This document shows, one piece after another, positions 9,906 through 44,029 of a DNA stretch of 64,000 nucleotides. Made by a program: the position numbers and the translations under genes. This DNA is from Chitinivorax sp. B. GTDB lineage: Bacteria > Pseudomonadota > Gammaproteobacteria > Burkholderiales > SCOH01. The DNA is taken from contig NZ_SCOH01000011.1 in the NCBI RefSeq assembly GCF_005503445.1, positions 34,085-98,084 on the forward strand, given 5' to 3'. Positions within the stretch are counted from its first letter, which is position 1. Each line of letters starts with the position of its first letter. Below the pieces are notes generated by a model, which ran no database searches, had not been told where the DNA came from, and saw nothing but the letters and a program-made list of their open reading frames with translations.

Positions 9906-10685
9906 CTATTTGCCATAAACGTCGAAATCGAAGTACTTGCCTTGAACCTGCTTGTAGACACCATTACTTCGAATGGCCTTGATGGCTGCCGTGAATTGGT
10001 CACGCAGATCGGCATCCGCCTTGCGTACGGCAACCGCCGCGCCAAAGCCGATGTATTTCGGATCATCCAGTACCGGTCCGACAAAACCATAATCCTTGCC
10101 AGCTGGTGTATCCATGAAATCGACCTTACCTACTACGCTATCCACCAGGGTGGTATCGATGCGGCCCGATTTCAGGTCCAGAAACACCTCGTTCTGCGAG
10201 CCGTAGGGAACAACTTGTGCACCTGCACGGCCATAGATATCGGCTGCATATTGCTCTTGAGTGGAGCCACGCAATACGCCGATCTTTTTACCCTTCATGC
10301 TTTCCGGTGTACCGGCCAGTTTTTTGTCGTTCTTGGCGATCAAACGGGAGGGGGTGTGATAATACTTCTCGGAGAACTCCACCGCGCGCTTGCGTTCTTC
10401 GGTGATCGACATGGAGGAAATGATGGCGTCGAATTTGCGGGCGTTCAACGCAGGGATGATGCCATCCCAGTCTTGCTCGACAAAGGTACACTTGGCCTTC
10501 ATCTGTGCACACAGGGCATTGGCGATATCAACATCGAAACCGGCCAACTTACCATCGGGGGTCTTGTAGGTGAAGGGCTTGTAAGCCGCTTCCAGACCAA
10601 TACGGATGGTTTTCCATTCTTTTGCCTGGGCGGTCGCCGCCAAAGCAGACATGAGTAGCGCAGCAATGAGCGCACGTTTCTGCAT
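9906..10685 (-). CDS. aotJ: periplasmic lysine/arginine/ornithine-binding protein
   Basis: A 259-aa family-3 solute-binding protein with a signal peptide (MQKRALIAALLMSALAATAQA). It is the first gene of the transporter operon. Confidence 0.9.
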   Translation of the reverse strand: MQKRALIAALLMSALAATAQAKEWKTIRIGLEAAYKPFTYKTPDGKLAGFDVDIANALCAQMKAKCTFVEQDWDGIIPALNARKFDAIISSMSITEERKRAVEFSEKYYHTPSRLIAKNDKKLAGTPESMKGKKIGVLRGSTQEQYAADIYGRAGAQVVPYGSQNEVFLDLKSGRIDTTLVDSVVGKVDFMDTPAGKDYGFVGPVLDDPKYIGFGAAVAVRKADADLRDQFTAAIKAIRSNGVYKQVQGKYFDFDVYGK

Positions 10686-10799
10686 ATTGTACTCCTCGTA
10701 TCAAACCGGCCAGCATACCACAAGCCGCATCCATCCTTCACCCCACCGCTTTATTGGTTATGGATTACGCGATGAGTCGAAAAGATTGTAACCACCCGA

Positions 10800-10830
10800 C
10801 TGATCGACACATTTCTTGAAAGCGACATGT
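10800..10830 (-). promoter_or_regulatory. putative ArgR-type box upstream of aotJ
   Basis: The minus strand reads ATGTCGCTTTCAAGAAATGTGTCGATC, with TGTCGC-N8-AA followed by a second TGTCGA half-site. It lies about 120-145 bp upstream of aotJ. Confidence 0.35.
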
Positions 10831-10918
10831 TGTTATATCGCCATATGACCGATTACACAGTATCAACCGAACCACCGAAACATGCGAAAATGATTGGTTC
10901 CATGTGCAGGCATCCAAG

Positions 10919-10960
10919 CGTCGAGCCAATGTACAAAGCTGTCGCATTAGGGAAATCCGC
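10919..10960 (+). promoter_or_regulatory. putative ArgR-type box upstream of gdhB
   Basis: The plus strand reads CGTCGAGCCAATGTACAAAGCTGTCGCATTAGGGAAATCC. The half-sites are 21 bp apart and the second is TGTCGC-N8-AA. The first half resembles the aruC site (CGTCGC-N4-AATG). Confidence 0.4.
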
Positions 10961-11144
10961 TAGATCAGCGTTTCGTTAGAATGCGCCAGAATAAAAAAAG
11001 GCATGACACTTGAGTGATAGTCGTATTTAGCTATGCTGAAATGTTCGCCGGCGCCAGTGGCTGCCCCAAAACCGTTGAATGGCTTGATCACAAGTCAAGT
11101 CACTGCAGCGGCTTTGGGACAGCTTCTGAGGAGGAGACCCCCAC

Positions 11145-14100
11145 ATGCAAAGCGATATCGTCGCAACCAAGCTACTCGACCAGATTTGTGCTGCCGGTAA
11201 TGGCAATGCTGCCCCCGGACTGACGAGTTTTCTCGAACAGTACTACCGCCTTGTCGCCACTGAAGACCTGGAAAGCCGTGAAGCGCTTGACTGGTATGGT
11301 GCAGCGCTGGCGCATTACCAGTTCGGCGCCAAGCGCCCGGCAGGTGAGCTGAAGCTGCGCGTCTACAACCCCAGCTTCAACGAAGACAATTGGCAGACCT
11401 CTCATACCGTCGTCGAAATCATCAATGACGATATGCCATTTCTGGTGGACACCGTCAGTCTGACTTTGCAACGCCTGGGCCTCAACATCCATCTGATCAT
11501 CCATCCAATTTTTGATGTGAACCGCGATGGTAAAGGTCAGTTGAGCGGTTTCGATGCGGCAGATACGCGTGCCGAATCCTGGATGCATGTCGAGATCGAC
11601 CGCATCAGCGGGCGTGGTCAGCTGGAAGAGATCCATGCCGCACTGGAAACCGCATTGACCCAGCTGCGTGCCTGCGTTGAAGACTGGCCTACCATGGCAA
11701 CCAGGTTGGAAGCCGTGGTTGACAGCCTACCCAAAGGCAATAGCGAAGCCGCACAGGCTGCCGATTACCTGACTTGGTTGCGGGACGAACATTTTGTATT
11801 CCTGGGCTTCCGTGAATACGAGCTGACCAGTGATGACAAGGGTCCACAACTGAAGATCGTCAACGAATCCGGCCTGGGTATGTTGCGCGAGGCAGGCGAA
11901 AAGACCCTCTCGGCCAGCTTCAAGGCATTGCCGCTTGAGCTGCGGGATCCGAAGCACCCGCGTGCCAAGCAGTTGATGGTGCTGACCAAGTCCAACTCCC
12001 GTTCTACCGTGCATCGCTCCGGCTATCTGGATGTGATTGCCCTCCGCCGCTTTGACGCTGCCGGCAACGCCGTGGGTGAATACCGATTCCTTGGTCTGTA
12101 TACGGCTGCTGCATACAATACGCCACCACATCAGATTCCATTGCTGTCCGACAAGATTGACGCCGTGATGAAGATGAGTGGCTTGCTGCCGAACAGCCAC
12201 AAGGCTAAAGCCCTGCTGAACGTACTGGAAACCTACCCACGCGACGAATTGATCGAAGCCAGCGAGGAAACACTGTTCCAGATCGCACTAGGCGTGGTCA
12301 ACCTACAGGAACGTTCACGTGTACGCGTGTTCATTCGCGAAGACATTTTCCGTCGTTATGTATCCGCACTGGTTTATCTGCCACGCGATACCTACAACAC
12401 GGATGTCCGTATCAAGATGCAGCAGATTCTGCTGAATGCCTTTAATGGCGTCAGTGCAGAATTCAACGTCATGCTGTCAGAAGCTGCGCTGGCACGCATT
12501 CACTTCATCGTTCGCATTCCGACGGGTGCGCAGCTTAACTACGATGCAGCAGATGTAGAAGCTCAAATTGTTGCCGCTTCCCGCCGCTGGGCTGACGATC
12601 TGCGCGACAACCTTTTGCAACACGCAGGTGAAGAGCGTGGCAATGCCCTGCTTCGCCGTTACCAGAACAGTTTCCCGGCCGCTTATCTGGCTGATTTCAA
12701 TGCCCGCAATGCTGTCGTTGATATCGACCGTATCGAGTCCTGCCTGGCAGGTCATCCGCTGGAGCTGGCCCTGTCAGCACCGAACCCATCCGATACCAGC
12801 CTGATCCGACTGAAACTGTATCGCTCTCAACCCATAGAGCTCTCGGATAGTTTGCCACTGCTGGAAAACCTGGGCGTGCGCGTGACCGATGAGCGCCCTT
12901 ACAAACTGCTGCTGGATGACGGACGCACGGTATCAATCACCGACATCGGTCTGCGCATGCCGCAAACCGGCCTGTTACATGACAGCGATGCGCGCCGCGC
13001 GTTCCAACATGCTTTTGCTGCGACCTTCACAGGTTTGGCAGAAAACGACCCGTTCAACCGCCTGGTTCTGCTGGCCGGTTTGCAATGGCGCGAAGTAGTT
13101 GTGCTGCGTGCTTACTCCAAGTATTTGCGCCAAATCGGTTTCAATTACACCATCGAAACGCTGGCTGACACGCTAGCACGCCATGCAGATCTGGCGAAGC
13201 GTCTGGCCGGCTTGTTCAATGCCATGTTTGAACCAGCACAGACTGGCAAACATGATATCGACACACAGTTTGTCGAGCTGAAGGATGCGCTGCAGAAGGT
13301 CGACAGTGTGGATGACGAACGCATCCTGTCTGGCCTGTTCAATGTGATCAAAGCCACCCTACGTACCAATTTCTTCCAGCCTGCTGTCGATGGCCAGCAA
13401 AAGCCTTACATTTCATTCAAGCTGTCCCCGCGTGACATCCCGAACATGCCGCAGCCGGTGCCCATGTTTGAAATCTGGGTTTATTCACCACGTGTCGAAG
13501 GTGTCCACTTGCGTGGTGGCAAAGTGGCCCGTGGTGGTCTGCGTTGGTCGGATCGCAAGGAAGACTTCCGTACCGAAGTACTGGGCCTGGTGAAAGCGCA
13601 GATGGTGAAAAACACCGTCATCGTGCCGGTTGGCTCAAAAGGTGGTTTTGTCTGCAAGCAGATGGTGCCAGGCATGGATCGCGATGCAGTTCAGGTGGAA
13701 GGCGTGGAATGCTACAAGACCTTTATCCGTGGCCTGCTGGATGTCACCGACAACCTGAAGGAAGGTAAAGTCGTACCGCCGTTGAACGTGGTGCGCCGCG
13801 ATCAGGACGACCCCTATCTGGTGGTGGCAGCTGACAAAGGTACCGCCACCTTCTCCGACATTGCCAACAGCGTGTCGCAGGAATATGGCTTCTGGCTGGA
13901 CGATGCCTTTGCATCCGGTGGCTCCGCAGGATATGACCACAAGAAGATGGGCATTACCGCCCGTGGCGCGTGGGAATCGGTCAAGCGCCAGTTCCGTGAA
14001 ATGGGCGTGGATACCCAGCAAGAAGTGTTCACTGTAGCCGGTATTGGCGATATGGCAGGTGACGTGTTCGGTAACGGCATGTTGAACAGCCCGTTCATCA

Positions 14101-27730: not shown

Positions 27731-28162
27731 TTACTGTGCCTTTTCCACCTCGATCGTCGACTTGGCCGGCGGCGCAGTCGGGTCAACCGGATGGCTAGTA
27801 GTATTGATGAACCACAACTTACCATCGACCTCAATACGCGCTGTCAACGCATATTGGCGCTTAGCTTCCAATTTATTGGCAGGGTAACGCAATTTGAATG
27901 CAATCGGCACCTGCTTGCCCTTGGTCTGAATGGTCTGCTGGGCAATGGTAGTCGCAGCCACATCCATCAACGATACATCGTCAAGCCGCACCTGCACCTT
28001 GGCATTTGGAGGCAAAGCCATCCGCTCGCGGTAGACCACCCCCCCTTTCAGCACCATCATCTTGCCCACCTTTTTTGTCAGCGCCTCGGCCCCCTGAGCC
28101 ACAGAACATACTCCACTCAGCGCCAACCCAAGTAACATGACATGCATCGTCCGAATTAGCAT
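27731..28162 (-). CDS. YbaY-like (lipo)protein
   Basis: 143 aa with a signal peptide. It resembles E. coli YbaY in size and pattern (...VQVRLDDVSLMDVAATTIAQQ...GKQVPIAFKL...DGKLWFIN...). Confidence 0.55.
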   Translation of the reverse strand: MLIRTMHVMLLGLALSGVCSVAQGAEALTKKVGKMMVLKGGVVYRERMALPPNAKVQVRLDDVSLMDVAATTIAQQTIQTKGKQVPIAFKLRYPANKLEAKRQYALTARIEVDGKLWFINTTSHPVDPTAPPAKSTIEVEKAQ

Positions 28163-28485
28163 TTTGCTTCCTTATTGATGACAAATGGCTATGGTAGCCG
28201 TTTCTTAGTTACCAGAAAATCGAATGCCACCGCACCAGCCCCTTAACAATATGACTTACCCTTTTGCCGCAACGGGCGGACAGAATACACATAGAAACCA
28301 CGTGAGCCGATCTGCATCAACGAGATTTTAATCGAATAACTTGTCACATAACCGTCATATTTCCATGGCACAGTGGCGGGCAATGCAACCGTTATCGTAT
28401 ACACCTCCATTACAAACACCACATGAGCTGATATTTGCCAATTCAGATCAGCCAGTAGCGAACACATTTCAGCATACTTACTCAA

Positions 28486-28512
28486 GCCGCCAAATCTGGC
28501 GGCTTTTTATTT
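28486..28512 (+). terminator. orphan plus-strand intrinsic terminator upstream of the psp/flotillin operon
   Basis: The sequence is GCCGCCA-AATC-TGGCGGC followed by TTTTTATTT. No plus-strand CDS precedes it. Confidence 0.45.
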
Positions 28513-28583: not shown

Positions 28584-28626
28584 GACATAATATGTCTTGA
28601 CATTTTATGTCCAAAATCCAATACTC
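28584..28626 (+). promoter_or_regulatory. sigma70-like promoter (TTGACA-N17-AATACT) overlapped by two tandem palindromes GACAT-N3-ATGTC
   Basis: The sequence is AGACATAATATGTCTTGACATTTTATGTCC. It lies about 40 bp upstream of the GTG start at 28665. Confidence 0.3.
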
Positions 28627-28664
28627 AACCTGTCGCTTTCATCCTTTTACCTTGGAGACAACGC

Positions 28665-29078
28665 GTGGACTTTCTGCAACGCATCGAACAATCCCTGACC
28701 GAGGTGCAATCCCACATGGGTGGACTAGAAGTACAAATGCAACCAATTCCCGGTGAAGTGGATGTGGTTCAACTCACCATCGAGGGTCGTGAGTCACTGC
28801 CGATTTTTCTCACTCGCTCGGACGCGCAAATGTTGTGTATCTGCTACCTGTGGACCGATGCCGAAGTTAAGCCGGATCAGCGCCAGGCGATGCAAACGAC
28901 GATGCTGGATCTGAACGTAGCAGTACCGTTGTCCTCTTTCGGACGCATCCAAGACAAATATGTACTGTTCGGCGCCCTGGCAAGCCACGCGACACCCGCC
29001 GACATTGCACTGGAAATCGTGACACTCAGCGACAACTCGGTCGACGCGCTGGATGCGATGTCGGACTACCTAATCTAA
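28665..29078 (+). CDS. YjfI-like DUF2170-family protein
   Basis: A 137-aa product from a GTG start preceded by GGAG, which is the right size for DUF2170. The track ORF (28341..) cannot be real because it runs through the terminator hairpin. It is the first gene of the operon. Confidence 0.5.
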   Translation: MDFLQRIEQSLTEVQSHMGGLEVQMQPIPGEVDVVQLTIEGRESLPIFLTRSDAQMLCICYLWTDAEVKPDQRQAMQTTMLDLNVAVPLSSFGRIQDKYVLFGALASHATPADIALEIVTLSDNSVDALDAMSDYLI

Positions 29079-29088
29079 GGAGGCAAAC

Positions 29089-29808
29089 ATGAATGTGTTC
29101 AACAAAATTCTTACCGCCCTACGTGGTTCGGTTCGCGAGATCGGCGAAAGCGTGGTCGATGCCAATGCTACCCGCATCTATGAGCAGGAGATCATGGATG
29201 CCAAGCACCACTTGAGCCAAGCCAAACAGGACTTAACGCTGGTCATGGCCAAGGAAATGCAAGCACAGCGGGATATCGCACGCCTGAATGGCGAAATCGC
29301 CAAGTATGAGCAACATGCACTACAGGCCCTGGACAAGGATGCCGCCACGCTGGCAGAAGAGGTTGCAGAACGGATTGCCATACTGGAAGTGGAGCTGACA
29401 GGCCAGATCAAGGTCAAGGAGGAATTTGCCGGTAACATTGTGCGACTGAAAGAACTGATCAAACAAACTGAAGCTAAATTACGAGAACATGAGCGTGAAC
29501 TGGCCATGGCCAAAACCACCGAAAGCGTCTATCGCGCTACTCAGTCCATCTCGCAGAGTATGCATGGCGGTGGGTCCAAGCTGATATCGGCAAGGGAATC
29601 TCTGGATCGCATCAAGCAACGCCACACCGAACTGAGTGATCGTATCAAGGCCACTGAACAATTGGATAACGAGTTGGGTGACAAAGCGCTGGATGCCAAG
29701 CTAGCAGCTGCAGGTATCGGCGCACAGGTTAATGGCAAGCAGGTTGTGCTGGACCGATTGAAAGCCAAGCATCGCGGCACCGATACCTCGCCAAAACAGG
29801 ATACGTAA
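29089..29808 (+). CDS. PspA/IM30-family protein (YjfJ-like, ESCRT-III-like)
   Basis: A 239-aa coiled-coil protein with the PspA/IM30 pattern (MNVFNKILTALRGSVREIGESVVDANATRIYEQEIMDAKHHL...). A strong AAGGAGG RBS precedes it. Confidence 0.8.
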   Translation: MNVFNKILTALRGSVREIGESVVDANATRIYEQEIMDAKHHLSQAKQDLTLVMAKEMQAQRDIARLNGEIAKYEQHALQALDKDAATLAEEVAERIAILEVELTGQIKVKEEFAGNIVRLKELIKQTEAKLREHERELAMAKTTESVYRATQSISQSMHGGGSKLISARESLDRIKQRHTELSDRIKATEQLDNELGDKALDAKLAAAGIGAQVNGKQVVLDRLKAKHRGTDTSPKQDT

Positions 29809-30137
29809 TGAGCAAGCCGATTCCCAGCCGCTGGCAAAGCTCGGACACCGCCATCAAAGCCGTGCAAGTCGCATTTGATGTCGAAGAGACGGTAATGAAT
29901 GCTGTGCGCCGTGCAGCCTTTGACAATAGTTTGTCCGCTTCGGATCAAATCCGCTTGGTTCTAGGTTTGTCCGTCGCCACCAAACCAAAGCGGCCACGCC
30001 TGACTGTCTCGCTGTCGGAAGAGGATTACCGTATTCTGGGCAAACGGTATGGCATCGATCCGGACGAACGGCTAAAAATCAAGGAGCACGTCACACAAGA
30101 CCTGATCCAGTTTGCTCAAACCACCGAGGACAAATGA
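29808..30137 (+). CDS. small protein with two tandem ribbon-helix-helix (CopG/Arc-like) repeats
   Basis: 109 aa. Its start overlaps the PspA stop (TAATG). Repeat 1 (KAVQVAFDVEETVMNAVRRAAFDNSLSASDQIRLVL) and repeat 2 (RLTVSLSEEDYRILGKRYGI) both fit the RHH strand-helix pattern. Confidence 0.4.
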   Translation: MSKPIPSRWQSSDTAIKAVQVAFDVEETVMNAVRRAAFDNSLSASDQIRLVLGLSVATKPKRPRLTVSLSEEDYRILGKRYGIDPDERLKIKEHVTQDLIQFAQTTEDK

Positions 30138-30162: not shown

Positions 30163-30858
30163 ATGCCACTGTGGCTTGATGCCATCCTGAGTTTTCCAAC
30201 CATCGTTTACACCATCTTACTGGTTGTCGTGGTGACTTATTGGCTGCTCGCCATTGTCGGGCTGGTCGATTTCAGCCATGGCCATCATGGCCATATGGAA
30301 TGGCACGACCTTGCGCATGGTCATGGCCACGATACCCACTTTCCTGCAGATGCGCACGGACATGGCGAAACCGATGTCAGCACGATTGCCAGTTTCGCCA
30401 TGGCGATGGGGCTTAGCGGTGTGCCCTTTTCGATTGTCGTCAGTCTGATCGTGTTCTTTGCCTGGGTTATATCGGCATTGGTGGGTGAATACGTACTGGT
30501 GTGGGTACCAACCCAGCTACTCAGAATATTGTTCGGTCTAGCAGTGATGGCAGGCGCCTTTGCAATGGCCTTGCCACTGACCGCCCTGACAATCCGTCCG
30601 ATGCGACCTCTGTTTGTCGTACACAACGCCCCACACAATGCCGGCCTGGTTGGGTTGCCCTGTCGTATTTTGACCCTAACGGTGGACGAAAAATTTGGTC
30701 AGGCAGAGGTCACGCACCAAGGCAGCACGTTCAACATCAAAATCTGGGCTCCCACACCCAATGGCTTGACCAAGGGCAGCATCAGTGCCCTGCTGGATTA
30801 CGACCAGAAAACTGGTCGTTACGAAGTGGCAACGGTCGATATCACCACCGACCAATGA
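30163..30858 (+). CDS. YqiJ/NfeD-like inner-membrane protein (His-rich loop, C-terminal OB-like beta domain)
   Basis: 231 aa with an N-terminal TM, the His-rich segment HGHHGHMEWHDLAHGHGHDTHFPADAHGHGE, further TM helices and a soluble beta-rich C-terminus. It sits directly upstream of the flotillin gene, as in yqiJ-yqiK and nfeD-floT pairs. Confidence 0.5.
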   Translation: MPLWLDAILSFPTIVYTILLVVVVTYWLLAIVGLVDFSHGHHGHMEWHDLAHGHGHDTHFPADAHGHGETDVSTIASFAMAMGLSGVPFSIVVSLIVFFAWVISALVGEYVLVWVPTQLLRILFGLAVMAGAFAMALPLTALTIRPMRPLFVVHNAPHNAGLVGLPCRILTLTVDEKFGQAEVTHQGSTFNIKIWAPTPNGLTKGSISALLDYDQKTGRYEVATVDITTDQ

Positions 30859-33058: not shown

Positions 33059-33076
33059 GTCGGGCTTCTGCCCGAC
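33059..33076 (+). other. intra-operon hairpin GTCGGGC-TTCT-GCCCGAC between the flotillin and zinc-ribbon genes (no T-run)
   Basis: A perfect 7-bp stem. It may be an mRNA processing or stability element or a partial attenuator. Confidence 0.3.
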
Positions 33077-33127: not shown

Positions 33128-33664
33128 ATGCACTGCCCTACCTGCAACGAAGCTCTCAGCCAATACGAACCCGCTGCTGGCCTGCGGGCCCATCATTGTG
33201 AACATGGCCATGGCATGTGGCTGGACATCGCGGAGTACCGTCGCTGGCTGCCGACACAAGCGGCCCACGGCGCCAGCCCCCTGACCGAACCAATATCAGA
33301 CATCAGCGACCACCGCGCGGCCCGTGCTTGCCCGGTATGTACTCGCATCATGCAGAAATATCGGGTATCCAGCCGGTTCGATTACCGCCTTGATCGCTGC
33401 AATACCTGCCAGGGTGTGTGGTTCGACCAAGGCGAATGGGATGCGCTGGTTGCCTTACAACAACAAGGCGATCTGAATACGATTTTGTCAGATGCCGGGC
33501 AACGTGACATTCAAGCCACCATCAGTCGGGAACGCATTGATGCACGCGATCGCGAACGGTTTGGCGACACCGTTTTTGCCGAACTGCAGCGTATCCGCCA
33601 ATGGCTGGCTAACCAACCCAATGCCCATGAACTGCTGGCTTATCTGAACCGCAGGGAACACTGA
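33128..33664 (+). CDS. protein with two tandem zf-TFIIB-like zinc ribbons
   Basis: Ribbon 1 is CPTC...HHCEHGHGMWLD and ribbon 2 is CPVC...CNTCQGVWFDQGEWDAL. Both fit the CPxC...C(x)2(C/H)GxW motif. Confidence 0.6.
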   Translation: MHCPTCNEALSQYEPAAGLRAHHCEHGHGMWLDIAEYRRWLPTQAAHGASPLTEPISDISDHRAARACPVCTRIMQKYRVSSRFDYRLDRCNTCQGVWFDQGEWDALVALQQQGDLNTILSDAGQRDIQATISRERIDARDRERFGDTVFAELQRIRQWLANQPNAHELLAYLNRREH

Positions 33665-33670
33665 TCAACC

Positions 33671-36600
33671 ATGTCCGAACCCCAAGAAAACCTCACCGAA
33701 CTTGCTGGTGGTAGCTACGATCTGCTTCGCCAACGGTTGAATCAACAAGGCGAAATGCTATTGACCAAGGCTGGCACACTGAATGAGGCAAGACTGGCCG
33801 AATTCGGCCGGGAAGACATGCGACTGATCCGCCGCATCCGTGCCCGTACTGAAAACAACTGCGTAGCCCGCGATCTGGTTCGGGTCGGCCCCTGGCTGCT
33901 GTTTGGCTACAACGTCTTCATTGGCCTTAAAAAAGAAACCCGCATCGAGGATGTGTTCAGCCTGTATCAACTGGTGGAAGGCAACGATGGTGACGAACTG
34001 ATACCCTCGCCATTCGATGGAACCTTTCTGGCTGATCAGCGCTTCACGGCCGATTTCCGCGAGCTTTACGCCTATTACAAACAAGCCACTTTGGTGCAGT
34101 TACGGGTACACAATGACAAATTGTTGGTCGCCTTCAAAATCGGCCAACAAATCACCGATATCCGCGTGTTCCGCTGGGCATTGGCGCCAGACGGCAAGAT
34201 TGCCTATATCGACAACCGTGGTGAGCGTGACATACAGCTGCCACCTACCCATGATTTCGAGTGGACCACCACCACCCGCGAAGACCACGTCAATGGCAAG
34301 CACCCGCATATCAACATTCTTGACACGGTGTTTGTGGAAACAATTGGCGGCGATCTGACCATCAAGATCGAGAACAACACTGAAAGTGGATTGGGTATCT
34401 TCAGCGAACCGGTGGATGACCGGAACCAATCATTGGCCGATGCCGACGTCGCCTATGCACGGCTGGGTGCGTTGATTCTGCTACGTATCAAGCCATATCG
34501 TGAAGACAAAGTACGTTACTTGGTCTACAACCAGCGCACCCAAACCGCCACCCGGATTGATGAGATGGGTGAGAGTTGTGTGCAATTGCCAGAAGACCAC
34601 GGAATCATCTTTCCCGGTGGGTATTACCTACAAAGCGGTGAATCCAAACGCTTTGATACTGACGCAGCTGGCATGCGCTTCAAGCGGATGGCACGCTCAC
34701 CCAACGGCGAGGATGTGCTGTATGTGTTCTATGAACCGGTAGCCGGTAAGCTTGGCCTGTTCTCCTACAACCTGATTGACAAGCAATTGTCAGCACCGAT
34801 CTACAGCAATGGCTACGCCCGCTTTGCAGACGGCCGCATCCTGTTGTTTATCGCAGAAAGTGACGAACCTACCCGCACCCACCCCATGCAATTGTGGCAA
34901 ACCCCATTCTGCAATGAGGAATTCGCCAGCAGCAAAGCGATTGGACACGGTTTTTTCGGCCGTATTGGTAATGGTGAACTGGTGCGCGGTTTGTCGGAAC
35001 TCTATGGCATTGCCCGTGCCGTGCGCGAGCAATGCCCCTCCCGCCACGCCTATGAAGACCTGATCAAGCACTGTGCCCGCGTTCAGGACAGTTATTTTTG
35101 GCTGGACGCCCCCGAGACAGGCCAGTTGGCTAGCGAACTCAAGGCAATCGGCGACACCGCCCGCGCCACGCTGGATGAGTTCGACAAGATCACCAGCATC
35201 CGTCGTGAAGCAGCCAAATTGCTGACTCAGGCAGAAGCCGAACAGAAAGCACTCAACACGGATATTGCCAGTGCACTATGGCACTCGCCTGGTGATTTTG
35301 TTGTAGCGCTGGACAAGCTGCGCGCGCAACGCGGCAGGCTGCTGACCTTGAAGGAAGCACGTTACATTGACCTGGACCGGATCAGCCAGCTGGATGTCGA
35401 GCTGACTACCGAGCAAACACGAATTGCCGACAAAACCATCCGCTTTTTGGCGCAAGATACAGCCTTTGACAGCTATCGCAATGAGCTGGCAAAAACTGCA
35501 ACCCAGCTGCCCACAGTGGAAAAGACTGTCGATCTGGCGCCGATTCTGGCCCAGCTGGATCAGGTGGCCCATGGTCTGGATCTGTTGACCGAGCTACTGG
35601 GCACACTGGCCGCCGGCGACGCCACTTTGCGCACCCGTATTCTGGATGCTATTTCCGGCGTCTATGCAGAGGTGAACAGATTACGCGCCGAAGCCCGCAA
35701 GCTGAAAAAACAATTGGCCGAAACCGAATCGGCCGCCGAATTTGGTGCGCAATTCAAGCTATTCGGGCAAAGCATTGCCAATGCGCTGGATCTGGCCGAC
35801 TCACCAGAAAAATGCGATGAGGCCATGACACGGCTACTGACGCAACTGGAAGAATTGGAAGGCCAGTTTGGTGAACAGGATGCCTTCATCGCCGATATTG
35901 CCATCAAACGCGAAGCGGTCTACGAGGCATTTTCCGGACGCAAGCAAACCTTGCTGGATGAGCGCCAGAAACGGGCCGGCGCCCTGTTTGATGCTGCCAG
36001 CCGCATTCTCGCAGGCATTCCCAAACGCGTGGTGCAACTGTCTGAGCAAGCACAACTACATGCCTACTTCGCCTCCGACGCGCTGATCCTGAAACTAAAG
36101 GGCTTGATAGGCGAGCTGCGCAAACTGGGCGACGCAGTCCACGCTGACGACCTCGAATCCCAATTGAAAACGGCGCGCGAAAATGCCGTCAAGGTATTGC
36201 GTGATCGCACCGAGCTGATGGGCGAAGGCGGTAATGTGATCCGCCTGGGCAAACACGCCTTTACCGTCAACGTGCAGCCGCTGGACCTGACCCTAGTACC
36301 CAAAGAAGGCGCCCTCGCCTTTCACCTGACCGGGACTGACTATTTTGAAATGGTCAATGACTCAGTGCTGGATTCACTCAAACCCTACTGGGGCTTGGTG
36401 CTACCCAGTGAAACACCTTCGCTGTATCGAGCCGAATATTTAGTCGGCCAATTGCTGGACGCGGCAACCCGCAAGGAATTCGGCTTGGATCTGAACCGCC
36501 TGCACGAGATCGCCGCTGACCTGCCAGCACTACAGGATCGCGTTCGTCAATTTGCGGCACCACGTTATCAGGATGGCTACCAGAAAGGCGTCCATGATCA

Positions 36601-38866
36601 TGATGCTGCATTGATATTGGCAGCCCTGCTACCAATGATGGACCATGCCGGCCTGCTTCGTTACAGCCCAACGGCCCGTGCACTGGCCGCGCTCTACCAT
36701 GCCGCCATTGGCGAAGGCCTGCAGACCCAATTGAAGCGACGCGCCCACAGCGCAGAACAACTTCATGCCCAGTTCGGACAAGATCAAGCCATAAACGAGC
36801 TCCGCCAGCATACCGTACGCAGCCTAGCCCGCTTTGCCAAGGAAAGCGGTCTGGAAAGCTGGTCCAATGGCACTTTGCTGGAAGAAGCTGGTGAATATCT
36901 GGTCGCTGAATTGGCCAGCCCGCAACGGGATTGGACAGAAAGTGGCAATGCCCGGGATTTGGCCGATGGCCTGATTCACTATCTGGAACATGCCAACCTG
37001 ATTGGCGAATGGCGTGACACACTGCAAAGCGGTAGCTTGAATGAACGCTGGTTACATGCCAGCCACTGGCTACAAGGCTATGCAACGGCCCACGCCCCGC
37101 AGGCCGTGTTCTTTGTCCCAGAAGCCGCCGCCCTACTATTGACCGAGCAAGCTCGTCATCGCGTCAATGCCACACTGCAACAGGCAGTACCGGGCTTGCT
37201 GGGTGAACACCCATTGATTCAGCAGGGTACGCTGCAGATCAACCTGAACGATTTCCGTCAAAGGCTAGCTCATCATCGCCAAGTTGTATTGCCTGCCTAC
37301 GAGCAACTACAGGCGTTACGACAGCAACTGGTCACAAATCGCAAGGGCGAACTCAAACTGCATCAGTTCCAGGCCAAACCACTGTCCAGCTTTGTGCGCA
37401 ACCGCCTGATCGACGAGGTATACCTACCCATCATTGGCGACAACTTAGCCAAACAGATGGGTACAGCGGGCGAAGCACGTCGTACCGATTTGATGGGGAT
37501 GCTGTTGCTGATCTCACCCCCCGGTTATGGCAAGACCACGCTGATGGAATATCTGGCTGATCGGCTGGGCATGATCTTCGTTCGAATCAACTGCCCTGCC
37601 TTGGGCCACGACATTGTCTCACTCGACCCTGCCCAGGCAACCCATAGCGCGGCGCGGCAAGAACTGGAAAAGCTCAACCTCGGATTGATGATGGGCAATA
37701 ACGTGATGTTGTATCTGGATGATATCCAACACACCAATCCGGAGTTCCTGCAGAAATTCATCGCGCTATGTGATGGCACGCGCAGAGTGGAAGGCGTATG
37801 GCATGGTGAACCGCGCACGTTCGACCTACGTGGTAAGCGTTTCGCAATCGTCATGGCAGGCAACCCATATACTGAATCAGGGGAAGCCTTCAAGATTCCG
37901 GACATGTTGGCCAACCGGGCCGACATCTATAATTTGGGTGATGTGTTGTCTGGGCGTGAAGCGTTGTTTGCCCTGTCATATCTGGAAAACAGCCTGACCG
38001 CTCACCCCGCCTTGGCTCCACTGACCAGTCGGGCACCGTCGGACGTCCGCCTATTTGTACAGATGGCGCAAGGTGAGAACGTTCCCCAAAGTGAGTTTAG
38101 CCATGCTTACGGTGCCGCTGAAGCCAATGAGATTGTTGGCCTGTTCCGCAAGCTGTTCCAGGTGCGTGATGTGCTGCTGCAGGTGAACGCAGCATACATC
38201 GCCTCCGCCGCGCAGGCTGATGCCTACCGTACTGAACCACCATTCAAGCTGCAGGGTAGCTATCGCAATATGGCCAAACTGACGGCCAGGGTCAGCGCCA
38301 TCATGCGCGATGATGAACTGGCCGCACTGCTGCGTGACCACTATCGCGGTGAAGCACAGACCCTGACCCAAGGTGCGGAAGAAAACCTCCTGAAATTGTC
38401 GGAAATCCTTGGGGACCATACGCCAGAAGAAGCCGAGCGTTGGGCTACCATCCGCGCCGATTTTCAACGCCACAAAAAACAAGGCGGCGCCGATGCCGAT
38501 GGCACCACCAAGCTTGCCAATCTGGCGGCGGATATGGCCGTCACGCTAGGCGATATTGCTGGACAACTACGTGATGCCCAAGGCACCAAAACCTTGGCCA
38601 AGGTTTTGCATGATGGACTGGGTACACTCGCCAAACATGTCCCACCCGCACCGCAAGTACATGTGCAGGTTGAACCCGCGGCAGATATCGTGGACGTCAT
38701 CCGCGGCCTGGCACAAGCCTATGAAACAGCGTTACTACCCACCATCAGTGCCATGAACCATAAGATTAGGTTGGATCATGAGATCTGGGAGAAAGTGCAG
38801 CAAATAGGCGAAGAGCTAACCAACCTGCAACAGCGCATTACCGCAGTAAGCAAGGCACCGCGATGA
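33671..38866 (+). CDS. giant (1731 aa) protein with an N-terminal beta-rich domain, long helical regions and a C-terminal MoxR/dynein-like AAA+ ATPase module
   Basis: Walker A LLISPPGYGKTTL (about nt 37510-37545), Walker-B-like MLYLDDIQH, and sensor-like AIVMAGNP...ANRADIYNLGD. The start lies 6 nt after the zinc-ribbon gene stop, so translational coupling is likely. Confidence 0.7.
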   Translation: MSEPQENLTELAGGSYDLLRQRLNQQGEMLLTKAGTLNEARLAEFGREDMRLIRRIRARTENNCVARDLVRVGPWLLFGYNVFIGLKKETRIEDVFSLYQLVEGNDGDELIPSPFDGTFLADQRFTADFRELYAYYKQATLVQLRVHNDKLLVAFKIGQQITDIRVFRWALAPDGKIAYIDNRGERDIQLPPTHDFEWTTTTREDHVNGKHPHINILDTVFVETIGGDLTIKIENNTESGLGIFSEPVDDRNQSLADADVAYARLGALILLRIKPYREDKVRYLVYNQRTQTATRIDEMGESCVQLPEDHGIIFPGGYYLQSGESKRFDTDAAGMRFKRMARSPNGEDVLYVFYEPVAGKLGLFSYNLIDKQLSAPIYSNGYARFADGRILLFIAESDEPTRTHPMQLWQTPFCNEEFASSKAIGHGFFGRIGNGELVRGLSELYGIARAVREQCPSRHAYEDLIKHCARVQDSYFWLDAPETGQLASELKAIGDTARATLDEFDKITSIRREAAKLLTQAEAEQKALNTDIASALWHSPGDFVVALDKLRAQRGRLLTLKEARYIDLDRISQLDVELTTEQTRIADKTIRFLAQDTAFDSYRNELAKTATQLPTVEKTVDLAPILAQLDQVAHGLDLLTELLGTLAAGDATLRTRILDAISGVYAEVNRLRAEARKLKKQLAETESAAEFGAQFKLFGQSIANALDLADSPEKCDEAMTRLLTQLEELEGQFGEQDAFIADIAIKREAVYEAFSGRKQTLLDERQKRAGALFDAASRILAGIPKRVVQLSEQAQLHAYFASDALILKLKGLIGELRKLGDAVHADDLESQLKTARENAVKVLRDRTELMGEGGNVIRLGKHAFTVNVQPLDLTLVPKEGALAFHLTGTDYFEMVNDSVLDSLKPYWGLVLPSETPSLYRAEYLVGQLLDAATRKEFGLDLNRLHEIAADLPALQDRVRQFAAPRYQDGYQKGVHDHDAALILAALLPMMDHAGLLRYSPTARALAALYHAAIGEGLQTQLKRRAHSAEQLHAQFGQDQAINELRQHTVRSLARFAKESGLESWSNGTLLEEAGEYLVAELASPQRDWTESGNARDLADGLIHYLEHANLIGEWRDTLQSGSLNERWLHASHWLQGYATAHAPQAVFFVPEAAALLLTEQARHRVNATLQQAVPGLLGEHPLIQQGTLQINLNDFRQRLAHHRQVVLPAYEQLQALRQQLVTNRKGELKLHQFQAKPLSSFVRNRLIDEVYLPIIGDNLAKQMGTAGEARRTDLMGMLLLISPPGYGKTTLMEYLADRLGMIFVRINCPALGHDIVSLDPAQATHSAARQELEKLNLGLMMGNNVMLYLDDIQHTNPEFLQKFIALCDGTRRVEGVWHGEPRTFDLRGKRFAIVMAGNPYTESGEAFKIPDMLANRADIYNLGDVLSGREALFALSYLENSLTAHPALAPLTSRAPSDVRLFVQMAQGENVPQSEFSHAYGAAEANEIVGLFRKLFQVRDVLLQVNAAYIASAAQADAYRTEPPFKLQGSYRNMAKLTARVSAIMRDDELAALLRDHYRGEAQTLTQGAEENLLKLSEILGDHTPEEAERWATIRADFQRHKKQGGADADGTTKLANLAADMAVTLGDIAGQLRDAQGTKTLAKVLHDGLGTLAKHVPPAPQVHVQVEPAADIVDVIRGLAQAYETALLPTISAMNHKIRLDHEIWEKVQQIGEELTNLQQRITAVSKAPR

Positions 38867-39029
38867 CAAGAACTGACCAGTAGGCAGGTTAAACATCCGA
38901 TAACGCAAATGCACAGACCATCACTTGAATGAGATAGGCTGTGTTTTATGCCTGATAATCGGTGAAGGCATGGTCGGCCTATTCTGTTATCGTGTCTTAA
39001 AATCCGAAGCTATGCATATGGAGCCTTTC

Positions 39030-39866
39030 ATGTCCGACGACAACAATTCGCAACGTATCAAGACCATCGCCATCGCAACAGCCATCGTGGCCTTGCTGGT
39101 TGGCGGCGGCGCCGCCATATTCGGTTCGTCCGACAAGAAAGCAGATGCAACCAAAGCTGCTGGCGGCAAACTCGCCAATTCGGACAGCAGCGCCAGCAGC
39201 GACACTTCGAGTGACGCCATGCAGAAACTGGCCGCCGAAACCAAGGCTGGCCGACAACCCCAAACCAGTAACAGCAAAACCATCTTGAGTGGTTCCGACG
39301 TGAAGCCAGGCGCAACCAAACTTGCCACGGCAACACCACCAGGCGCTGAGCATGGCGACATGATCAGCGGTGGCATGGGTGGAGGCAGTTCATCCAACGT
39401 TGCACCGTTCAAGAATGGCGATTTGGTATCGCTACAGTGTCAGGACACGGTACCCGGCCCCAAATGGCTGAATGGTTCTGTCAAGAGCAGTTCAGTCGGG
39501 TTATCCATGCAACAGGAAGCTGCACCTGCCTCCACGTGGTGGAAAGTCACCGTCAGCAACGAAGGCTCGATTGTTTTTGAAAGTCAGGACGGTGGTGCTG
39601 GCAATTTCCTGTCCACCAGCGGCACCACAGGCTTGCGCCTACAGCCCAACGCCAAGGACCCAGGCGCCATGTGGTTGGTCGAAAAATCGGAACGTGGCTG
39701 GTCATTACGCAATATGGACAATCCACAGGGCGGCCGATGGGTAGACTGTGTCGCAGCAGACAATAAAGTCTGGATGGCACCTAGCCGGGACGGCCATGTC
39801 AACGGCACCAGCTGGAAGATCGTGAAAAAACCCGCAGCCGGCTCCGAGTCTGCCACACAAAGCTGA
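39030..39866 (+). CDS. membrane-anchored protein with Ser/Ala-rich linker and C-terminal beta-trefoil (ricin-B/fascin-like) candidate domain
   Basis: The start was chosen at MSDDNN after GGAG. A single TM follows (IAIATAIVALLVGGGAAIF). The C-terminus contains three repeats of about 40 aa with conserved Trp residues (TWWKV..., AMWLV..., TSWKIV...). Confidence 0.42.
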   Translation: MSDDNNSQRIKTIAIATAIVALLVGGGAAIFGSSDKKADATKAAGGKLANSDSSASSDTSSDAMQKLAAETKAGRQPQTSNSKTILSGSDVKPGATKLATATPPGAEHGDMISGGMGGGSSSNVAPFKNGDLVSLQCQDTVPGPKWLNGSVKSSSVGLSMQQEAAPASTWWKVTVSNEGSIVFESQDGGAGNFLSTSGTTGLRLQPNAKDPGAMWLVEKSERGWSLRNMDNPQGGRWVDCVAADNKVWMAPSRDGHVNGTSWKIVKKPAAGSESATQS

Positions 39867-43396: not shown

Positions 43397-44029
43397 TCAT
43401 ATGGCATGAAGTAGGCGCATATGCTCGACGCCATCGACGAAATCCCTGACGCGCTGGAAGCCCCGCCAAAAGGTTTTGATGCCGGGTTCACCGTCCCCCT
43501 TTCTGCCGAGAAACCCGCCGAGCATGGCGATCTGCCGGATGACTTCACGGATCGTCGGTGGCGTCGTCGGGATCGGCTTCTTGGCCAGGATATAGGCGCC
43601 TTTCCACTCGTCATCGGTGAAGAGCGTCGTCGCTGCGAGTTCCGGATGCGTCCACCCCAAGCGCACCAGGCGCGCCAGTCGCCACGCCACGACCATGTAG
43701 ACGGCCAGGGCCAGTTCGAGCTTGCCGACATGTTTGAGCTGCAAGGCTTCGACCCGGCAGCCGTTCTTGAGCACGTTGAAGAAGGTCTCGATCTCCCAGC
43801 GGCAGCGATACCAGTCGATCAGTTCGACGACGGCGTCGAAGGTCGGTGCGCTTCGGTTCGTCAGCAGCCGCCACTCCACCGCCTTGATCCCAGTGGGCGC
43901 ATGGCTTTCCCTGGCGATGCAGCAGGTGAGGTGCATGCGGCCGCCTTGGCCGTCGGGCAGCGTGAGCTGGCGCGCCCAAACCTGTTGGCGTACCAGGCGC
44001 GCCGCTTGCCCATGACGGGCAGCAATCAT
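43397..44029 (-). mobile_element. IS4-family (DDE) transposase gene remnant, N-terminally truncated
   Basis: A 210-aa C-terminal DDE transposase fragment (...WRLLTNRS...YRCRWEIETFFNVLKNGCRVEAL...). It is much more GC-rich than its flanks. No full-length ORF and no obvious terminal inverted repeats were found. Confidence 0.7.

Follow-up and report, generated by a model that had tools for sequence, protein, structure and literature searches.

We analysed a window of 64,000 nucleotides from Chitinivorax sp. B (contig NZ_SCOH01000011.1, positions 34,085 to 98,084 of the forward strand) and concentrated on one of its genes, at window positions 33671-38866 on the + strand, which encodes a 1731-residue ATPase of the AAA+ class. 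The reading that we favor, at somewhat better than even, is that this ATPase is a soluble, cytoplasmic, MoxR-like remodeller or switch for the scaffold formed by YqiJ-like and flotillin-like proteins and, in most genomes, for the YjfI-PspA module as well. Since the ATPase is near-constantly encoded beside a flotillin gene, it probably takes part in the remodelling of membrane-repair scaffolds. The evidence comprises the domain anatomy of the protein, a set of intact and conserved nucleotide-binding motifs, a MoxR-like fold, predicted solubility and a near-obligate synteny, and this synteny strongly supports a functional link to the flotillin gene.

Family, domain anatomy and nucleotide site of the ATPase

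The gene is a genuine open reading frame (ORF) that starts with ATG, as proposed in a preliminary description of the window that had been made from the letters alone. Its product matches, at 100% identity, the record "DNA repair ATPase [Chitinivorax sp. B]" of NCBI and UniRef, and its surroundings are chromosomal and of a housekeeping kind (NAD-glutamate dehydrogenase, purL, cysG and flagellar genes). Profile searches matched Pfam DUF3686 (PF12458) at residues 31-476 (E 4.6e-198; 658.7 bits with a cut-off of 25, the match extending over profile positions 3-448 of 448) and DUF7902 at residues 598-680 (E 9.6e-25). The roughly 1500 residues outside the ATPase core, which had seemed to lack any recognisable motif, are thus partly covered by known families, although both are of unknown function. 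Residues 1276-1401 gave weak matches to the generic Pfam families AAA, AAA_22 and AAA_5, and the P-loop gave a sub-threshold match to RuvB_N. The full architecture of DUF3686, DUF7902 and a C-terminal AAA+ module in a chain of ~1600-1930 residues is found in the window protein and is common to its homologues. With every tested feature present, these profile matches make the protein a member of the Pfam DUF3686/DUF7902/AAA family. The novelty implied by the preliminary description was therefore misplaced, as the family is in Pfam, has been named by NCBI and has a published operon association (PMC11237479).

The full-length window protein matches more than 5000 clusters at 90% identity. With its first 500 residues, 729 clusters at 50% identity are matched, in which complete members are 1600-1930 residues long. 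Copies were found in at least 595 species-level genomes, and the family ranges over Beta-, Gamma- and Zetaproteobacteria, Bacteroidota, Planctomycetota, Actinomycetota and Deinococcota. Searches of the PDB with the protein itself (phmmer) and with an 87-sequence alignment (hmmsearch) returned only insignificant P-loop matches (Rix7, RuvB and Rpt3); by this measure there is no solved relative among the structures searched. Two proteins of ~1040 residues (P0310, at 10001-13123 of locus L007, and P0311) have DUF3686 and DUF7902 and no AAA+ module. The L007 gene is surrounded by Por-secretion-tail proteins and not by flotillin, YqiJ or PspA; it may represent a copy in decay or a variant that lacks the ATPase. 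An actinomycete copy on a contig of Phytomonospora sp. (NZ_JBFAKK010000027.1, 905-2350) is cut at the contig end; over its C-terminal region it shares 61% identity with the betaproteobacterial query, as much as Xanthomonadales copies do.

In order to define the anatomy of the protein, we built two AlphaFold2 models from the 87-sequence alignment, one of residues 1-1200 (mean predicted local distance difference test score, pLDDT, 84) and one of residues 1131-1731 (mean pLDDT 80). The following parts were distinguished:

33761..35098, + strand: DUF3686, an N-terminal helix and a beta-rich, propeller-like domain (residues 31-476)
34916..36220, + strand: helical, coiled-coil stalk (residues 416-850) that includes DUF7902 (residues 598-680; nucleotides 35462-35710)
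36236..37141, + strand: small beta unit (residues 856-894) and helical domain (residues 898-1157), from the AlphaFold2 model and the conservation profile
37478..38350, + strand: single MoxR-like AAA+ module (residues ~1270-1560)
38351..38863, + strand: C-terminal helical tail (residues 1561-1731), from the AlphaFold2 model and the conservation profile

In the models, an N-terminal helix (residues 15-45) precedes a beta-rich domain of ~29 strands (residues 51-410, pLDDT mostly 80-90), which agrees with the beta-rich start foreseen for the protein. Foldseek returned many beta-propellers for this domain with a probability of ~1.0 and low TM-scores, and a propeller-like fold, suggested earlier as a possibility, is plausible from the model. 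Among its residues, G346-E347-D348 and L306-P307 are examples that do not vary within the family. The helical middle was likewise anticipated correctly: the stalk includes helices of 49, 58 and 51 residues. Ahead of the AAA+ module, conservation is lowest at residues 1001-1150, in the helical domain beyond the stalk. The alpha/beta core, whose first strand is at residues 1277-1281, is reached by way of a short beta element and a long helix and is followed by a helical lid and extension. The C-terminal tail is weakly conserved past residue 1600 and ends in one long helix (residues ~1671-1727). The protein is predicted to be soluble and cytoplasmic because no segment resembles a transmembrane helix (the highest 19-residue Kyte-Doolittle mean is 1.47). 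We also considered a second, degenerate AAA domain and rejected it, there being neither a second P-loop nor a second alpha/beta core in either model.

All three ATPase motifs that had been picked out by eye are present in a single core, and the core lies at residues ~1270-1560 (motifs at 1282-1399), some 80 residues further on than the 1200-1360 first given. The Walker A motif SPPGYGKTT occupies residues 1282-1290 (K1288; nucleotides 37514-37540) and is the only P-loop in the whole protein. The Walker B motif MLYLDDIQH follows at residues 1346-1354, with D1350 and D1351 encoded by nucleotides 37718-37723, and sensor 1, AIVMAGNP, is at residues 1392-1399 (N1398, nucleotides 37862-37864). R1416 is a candidate arginine finger and R1532, within QGSYRNM, a candidate sensor 2. 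Among 189 full-length homologues, SPPGYGKTT was found in 185, DDIQH in 180, DDVQH in 2 and MAGNP in 181, and DD(I/V)QH is near-invariant down to 31-33% identity. With regard to conservation along the chain, we aligned 105 diverse members, which share a median of 40% identity with the window protein. Identity per column reaches 0.71-0.79 at residues 1251-1450 and 1501-1550, is 0.5-0.6 in the propeller and ~0.27 at residues 1001-1150, and falls below 0.25 in the C-terminal tail, so that conservation peaks in the AAA+ core. At least 97% conserved are the Walker motifs, the stretch GNPYT..G..F..PDML.NR.D..NLG that holds R1416, and QGSYR.M, which holds R1532. The paired aspartates of the Walker B motif were noted correctly at the outset and misjudged as degenerate: because they are near-invariant and lie in the most conserved part of the protein, they are a selected, fixed family signature and not decay. 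They may mean slow hydrolysis or switch-like behaviour.

The fold of the module is closest to the MoxR ATPases CbbQ (6l1q) and NorQ (9qh4), with matched chains of 254-267 residues, in keeping with the MoxR-like assignment made at first sight. A hairpin between alpha3 and beta4 (residues ~1372-1385 in the AlphaFold2 secondary structure) stands at the pre-sensor-1 position. At the level of profiles, AAA_5 scored 23.3 bits (E 7e-5), its cut-off being 22, the generic AAA and AAA_22 scored equal or better, and Pfam AAA_3 gave no match at E <= 0.01. MoxR ATPases normally work through an adaptor with a VWA domain. The protein could therefore be thought a canonical MoxR-VWA chaperone that inserts metal cofactors or activates enzymes, as do CbbQO, NorQD and RavA-ViaA, and both the best structural matches and the label "MoxR-like ATPase" that JGI gives to some homologues would fit. 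However, we found no VWA/MIDAS gene in the window or in 10 inspected neighbourhoods and no conserved gene for a target enzyme nearby, the chain is ~5-7 times the length of a MoxR protein, and neither its Walker B motif nor its AAA_3 result is as expected; we regard this account as extremely improbable. Since the VWA partner is missing, the Walker B reads DD and not DE, and the chain is so much longer, the protein should be described as MoxR-like and not filed as a MoxR system. Nor is it a Vps4-type, RuvB-type or SMC-type protein; the MIT domain and classical-clade fold of Vps4-type proteins were not found in it.

The database name invites a different reading, namely that the protein is an ATPase of DNA repair. 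The name can be traced to the description line of Pfam DUF3686 ("ATPase involved in DNA repair"), and this line and the NCBI product name are all that speaks for the reading apart from uvrA and mutL near the gene in one Sphingobacterium locus. That proximity is not conserved, however, and searches of Pfam and NCBIfam found no DNA-binding, nuclease, SMC/Rad50 or helicase domain. The RuvB equivalog scored 17.7 bits against a cut-off of 282 and matched the P-loop only, and the conserved neighbours are membrane proteins in every lineage examined. A role in DNA repair is thus scarcely credible, and the name is spreading through databases without support.

Gene neighbourhood across relatives

To compare neighbourhoods we collected 90 loci, 80 from a species-level genome collection and 10 through specific homologues and plasmid matches, and identified neighbours by profile searches of the ORFs of each locus, with profiles built from the window proteins. 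Neighbour counts refer to the 69 loci that extend at least 6 kb upstream of the ATPase gene (67 for the downstream PLD/HKD gene). A flotillin-like gene stands immediately upstream of the ATPase in 68 of the 69, and a YqiJ-like gene directly before the flotillin gene in 68/69, so that the order YqiJ-like, flotillin-like, ATPase holds in 68/69 loci across Beta-, Gamma- and Zetaproteobacteria. The link to flotillin that the preliminary description had raised is therefore borne out, and its own grounds for doubt did not materialise: the domains are not well characterised, no MoxR-VWA pathway is involved and the tie to the neighbours is strong. The same triad occurs in Bacteroidota, on two metagenomic contigs (one from an unclassified metagenome-assembled genome), in Streptomyces and in Deinococcus. 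In the last two there is no adjacent PspA, and the middle gene is annotated at NCBI as "flotillin family protein" or as hypothetical.

Other genes are less constant. PspA was found in 47/69 loci, YjfI in 45/69, and a homologue of the 109-residue ORF that follows pspA in the window in 21/69, at the same position; a PLD/HKD gene follows the ATPase in 23/67. Gene content thus points to a constant core of YqiJ/NfeD-like protein, flotillin and ATPase, with PspA-YjfI as a frequent second module. The variable neighbours PLD/HKD, rhomboid, TelA, TPM phosphatase, DUF350 and spermine synthase are all membrane-related; DUF4178 is a further variable neighbour.

A gene for a zinc-ribbon protein, which in the window directly precedes the ATPase gene, had been suggested to encode a stoichiometric partner. 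We rejected it as an obligate partner: the gene is present in only 21/69 loci and in three kinds of position (12 in the gap between flotillin and ATPase, 5 behind the ATPase and 4 at other places), and it was not detected in the Bacteroidota, Streptomyces or Deinococcus loci. Presence in so few loci at variable positions marks it as a lineage-specific accessory. Where it lies directly 5' of the ATPase, with a gap of -4 to +38 nucleotides, the arrangement is confined to Burkholderiales-type loci; co-translation of the two genes is plausible there, and this coupling cannot define the general partner of the protein. In two Cellvibrionaceae-type loci (L006 and L037) a set of YjfI, PspA, small ORF and zinc ribbon, in part with a rhomboid gene, is transcribed divergently from the YqiJ-like, flotillin and ATPase genes, so that the zinc ribbon goes with the PspA arm and not with the ATPase.

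The Pseudomonas fluorescens SBW25 megaplasmid pQBR103 (NC_009444.1, 84437-97641) holds a ten-gene string that combines an E. coli-type yjfIJKLMC-like set, a rhomboid gene and the triad. Its genes yjfI, pspA, rhomboid, DUF2491, DUF350, DUF1190 and a glutathionylspermidine-synthase (GspS)-like gene run straight into the triad, whose middle gene is annotated "SPFH domain-containing protein". As pQBR103 is a well-studied plasmid, the system could be tested there. A check of family members of unusual length or odd alignment yielded no more than hints, in three metagenomic proteins that appear to be fusions: in P0254 (residues 1-417) and P0250 (residues 1-200) a C-terminal segment of flotillin is joined in frame upstream, and in P0198 (residues 74-215) an NfeD1b_N domain is (56.6 bits against a cut-off of 40). 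They may be artefacts of gene calling, since their linkers resemble translated non-coding or frameshifted high-GC DNA; if real, they would be Rosetta-stone links to the SPFH/NfeD system.

The neighbourhood also bears on whether the locus serves anti-phage defence, with the ATPase sensing infection and the PLD/HKD protein, where present, acting as a nuclease or lipase effector of abortive infection. Pairs of a large NTPase and an HKD protein are common in defence systems, and the frequency of the PLD/HKD gene after the ATPase would agree with this, as would AbiJ-like and deaminase genes near one locus (L006) and the "phage shock" name with its historical link between Psp and phage. Yet eight operon proteins gave no significant match to PADLOC, the best being IetA (E 0.0023) over a 30-residue P-loop stretch, and the PADLOC matches for PspA were coiled-coil noise. 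No family copy was found in a phage collection of 50,697 records, and 13 of 72,556 plasmid records carry one, mostly megaplasmids or mislabelled chromosomes. With gene order stable across phyla, housekeeping surroundings and a window copy that has no PLD gene, a defence function is very unlikely.

The same operon class was described by comparative genomics by Ravi et al. 2024 (mSystems, PMC11237479), who list a "Beta-propeller + coiled-coil + AAA+ ATPase" of operons of CesT/Tir-PspA, YqiJ-YuaF and band-7-flotillin genes, with Dokdonia donghaensis as the prototype, note abbreviated operons without PspA, and propose ATP-dependent membrane remodelling analogous to ESCRT-III and Vps4. The window protein, which has both the architecture and the operon features, is of the same family. 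Their coverage of the ATPase amounts to one sentence and one table row, with no AAA+ clade and no experiments (PMC11237479), and our literature search found no other paper on the protein. To that account we add the MoxR-like fold, the near-invariant DD(I/V)QH motif, the finding that the flotillin triad and not PspA is the constant core, the variable, accessory nature of the zinc-ribbon gene and a copy, that of the window, without a PLD gene.

The operon in the window

In the window the + strand order is YjfI/DUF2170, PspA/IM30, 109-residue ORF, YqiJ/NfeD-like, SPFH/flotillin-like, double zinc-ribbon and ATPase. The features around the ATPase gene are:

28597..28625, + strand: promoter-like site TTGACA-17-AATACT (consensus scan, 10/12 matches)
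28665..29078, + strand: YjfI/DUF2170 (CesT/Tir-like) gene (Pfam DUF2170, E 9.9e-31, residues 114-244 of the listed ORF)
29089..29808, + strand: PspA/IM30 (YjfJ-type) ESCRT-III-like protein (Pfam PspA_IM30, E 3.1e-35)
29808..30137, + strand: conserved small ORF of 109 residues from the ORF list, overlapping the PspA stop codon (ATGA)
30163..30858, + strand: YqiJ/YuaF (NfeD-like) membrane protein with N-terminal transmembrane segments, a His-rich loop and a C-terminal OB-like segment (naming after PMC11237479)
30965..33037, + strand: SPFH/flotillin-like protein of 690 residues with an N-terminal transmembrane helix, SPFH-like region, long coiled coil rich in Glu, Ala and Lys, and conserved C-terminus
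33128..33664, + strand: double zinc-ribbon protein, 2 x Zn_ribbon_TFIIB and a helical tail (Pfam PF13453, E 1.2e-19, two stretches)
39031..39866, + strand: downstream ORF with a single transmembrane segment, a Ser/Ala-rich linker and a beta-rich C-domain

We corrected the start of yjfI to GTG 28665, which has GGAGA at 28654-28658, 6 nucleotides before it, and gives a product of 137 residues, in agreement with orthologues of 136-138. The mechanically listed ORF (start 28341, 245 residues) is over-extended and contains a terminator-like hairpin with a T-run (28484-28505) as well as the promoter-like site. Such sites are no commoner in the region than in shuffled sequence, so that the one at 28597-28625 is weak evidence by itself; its position just 5' of the corrected start fits. 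No Pfam family matched the 109-residue ORF, in which inspection by eye suggests two ribbon-helix-helix-like repeats (VQVAFDVEETVMNAVRRAA... and RLTVSLSEEDYRILGKRYG...).

Of 26 YqiJ-like orthologues, 4 match Pfam YqiJ_N, weakly, and 2/26 flotillin-like orthologues match Pfam Band_7 (best 1.2e-7). The window flotillin-like protein has a weak match to NCBIfam FloT (E 0.0025) and no Pfam match, and NCBI names its orthologues "flotillin family protein" or "SPFH domain-containing protein". When the PDB was searched with profiles of the flotillin-like and the YqiJ-like orthologues, neither search was of use, and the flotillin-like one came back empty.

In the 90-nucleotide gap between the flotillin-like and zinc-ribbon genes lies a 7-bp GC-rich hairpin (33059-33076, GTCGGGC-TTCT-GCCCGAC) with no T-run after it on the + strand. 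In B. subtilis, a terminator between pspA and ydjG sets differential expression, and by analogy this hairpin could do so within the operon. The zinc-ribbon protein has no transmembrane segment. Its gene ends with TGA at 33662-33664 and the ATPase ATG is at 33671, so that the 6-nucleotide gap reported for this junction is correct, as is the lack of a Shine-Dalgarno sequence: the only purine-rich stretch before the ATG, AGGGAA at -18 to -13, is too distant for a standard one.

The downstream ORF likely starts at ATG 39031, with GGAG at 39020-39023. It matches no Pfam family, none of the 90 related loci holds a homologue, and it occupies the slot of the PLD/HKD gene seen in many relatives; it is probably outside the system. 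Elsewhere in the window, a gene for a YscW-family lipoprotein (27731-28162, - strand; type III secretion pilotin-like, E 6.6e-33) stands alone between cysG and the operon, and no other type III secretion genes were noticed nearby. A truncated remnant of a Tn5-type transposase (43397-44029, - strand; 210 residues, with only the end of the DDE domain and the Tn5 dimerisation domain) lies between the esterase/USP region and flagellar flgL-flgK.

A proposed mechanism and known systems

How would a remodeller of this kind work? By analogy with other MoxR ATPases, the single AAA+ module would oligomerise, probably into a hexamer, giving a particle of ~1.1 MDa. The propeller-like N-domain would bind a client or adaptor, which might be the flotillin C-terminus, the cytoplasmic domain of YqiJ, PspA or an accessory of the zinc-ribbon type, and the long helical stalk would fix the spacing of the ATPase ring from the membrane-bound flotillin assembly. 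Docked on the cytoplasmic face of the YqiJ/flotillin scaffold, the machine would use ATP binding and probably slow hydrolysis, as the invariant DD suggests, to assemble, dismantle or reshape flotillin polymers, PspA polymers or both under membrane stress. Its role would parallel that of Vps4 for ESCRT-III or of FtsH within HflK/C cages.

The main rival of this reading holds that the protein is a nucleotide-gated scaffold or tether, in which ATP at the DD site is a slow switch for self-assembly of a lattice of coiled coils and propellers under the flotillin domain, with little mechanical work. In its favor, the catalytic Glu is replaced by Asp family-wide, and propeller and helices outside the ATPase make up over 1200 of the 1731 residues. 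Foldseek also gave resemblances, at low TM-scores, to propeller-and-helix proteins of coats or scaffolds, among them clathrin heavy chain, IFT-A and Elp1. MoxR ATPases are not known to act as processive unfoldases, which counts in its favor as well. Those coat matches have TM-scores below 0.2, however, and sensor 1, the candidate arginine finger and the candidate sensor 2 are all invariant, which points to selection for hydrolysis and not for binding alone. We consider a scaffold or tether of this kind unlikely.

Several points weigh against the remodeller or switch that we favor. Its functional link to flotillin is drawn from gene neighbourhood alone, and our literature search found no experimental study of any family member. 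PspA may not be a client, since about one-third of loci have no adjacent PspA. Flotillin and PspA can work without the ATPase, given that E. coli has YqiJK and YjfIJ and no detectable copy (complete E. coli genomes gave no blastn match to the Providencia copy). The SPFH identity of the 690-residue window protein rests on its orthologues, its own sequence scores being weak, and the propeller assignment is soft. With regard to the MoxR comparison, the AlphaFold2 secondary structure shows an 18-residue loop between beta2 and alpha2 with no clear helix-2 beta-hairpin insert, and the missing VWA gene belongs here as well.

The family bears on the assembly, turnover and dismantling of flotillin microdomains and of PspA/ESCRT-III-like polymers in bacteria. 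In B. subtilis, PspA is bound by the SPFH protein YdjI and depends on it for recruitment to the membrane (PMC8581546), and a 2025 review concluded that a Vps4-like ATPase is apparently absent in bacteria, which leaves the regulation of PspA polymers unexplained (PMC7619361). The present family is widespread and almost never apart from a flotillin gene, and is therefore a concrete, testable candidate for the energy-consuming component. A bolder version of our proposal would make it the missing bacterial machine for ATP-driven disassembly and remodelling of membrane-scaffold polymers: the first dedicated AAA+ remodeller of SPFH/flotillin cages and, with PspA, a non-homologous counterpart of Vps4, built on a MoxR chassis with a propeller as substrate receptor and a stalk that reaches the cage. 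We hold this version to be possible and rather doubtful. The family would also stand as a MoxR-type ATPase that does without a VWA partner and has an invariant DD Walker B.

Several known systems lend themselves to comparison with the protein. From the MoxR ATPases CbbQ (6l1q), NorQ (9qh4) and RavA it differs by ~1270 extra N-terminal residues and the lack of a detected VWA partner, by a Walker B that reads LYLDD in place of the canonical hhhhDE, and by the absence of an AAA_3 match and of a clear helix-2 hairpin in the model. With Vps4 and CdvC it shares the genetic coupling of an AAA+ ATPase to a protein of the ESCRT-III superfamily, here PspA, and the predicted turnover of polymers at membranes. 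Its likeness to HflK/C-FtsH lies in the pairing of an SPFH scaffold with an AAA+ machine at the cytoplasmic membrane and in an NfeD-type gene that adjoins the SPFH gene. FtsH is a membrane-anchored, classical-clade AAA+ protease inside the HflK/C cage, whereas the window protein, predicted to be soluble, lacks a protease domain, and its gene shares an operon with that of its SPFH protein. Finally, the B. subtilis PspA-YdjGHI (SamGHI) operon also joins PspA, an SPFH protein and a double zinc-ribbon protein (PMC8581546, PMC11237479), but the Bacillus operon has no AAA+ ATPase, and YdjG is anchored in the membrane, unlike the zinc-ribbon protein of the window.

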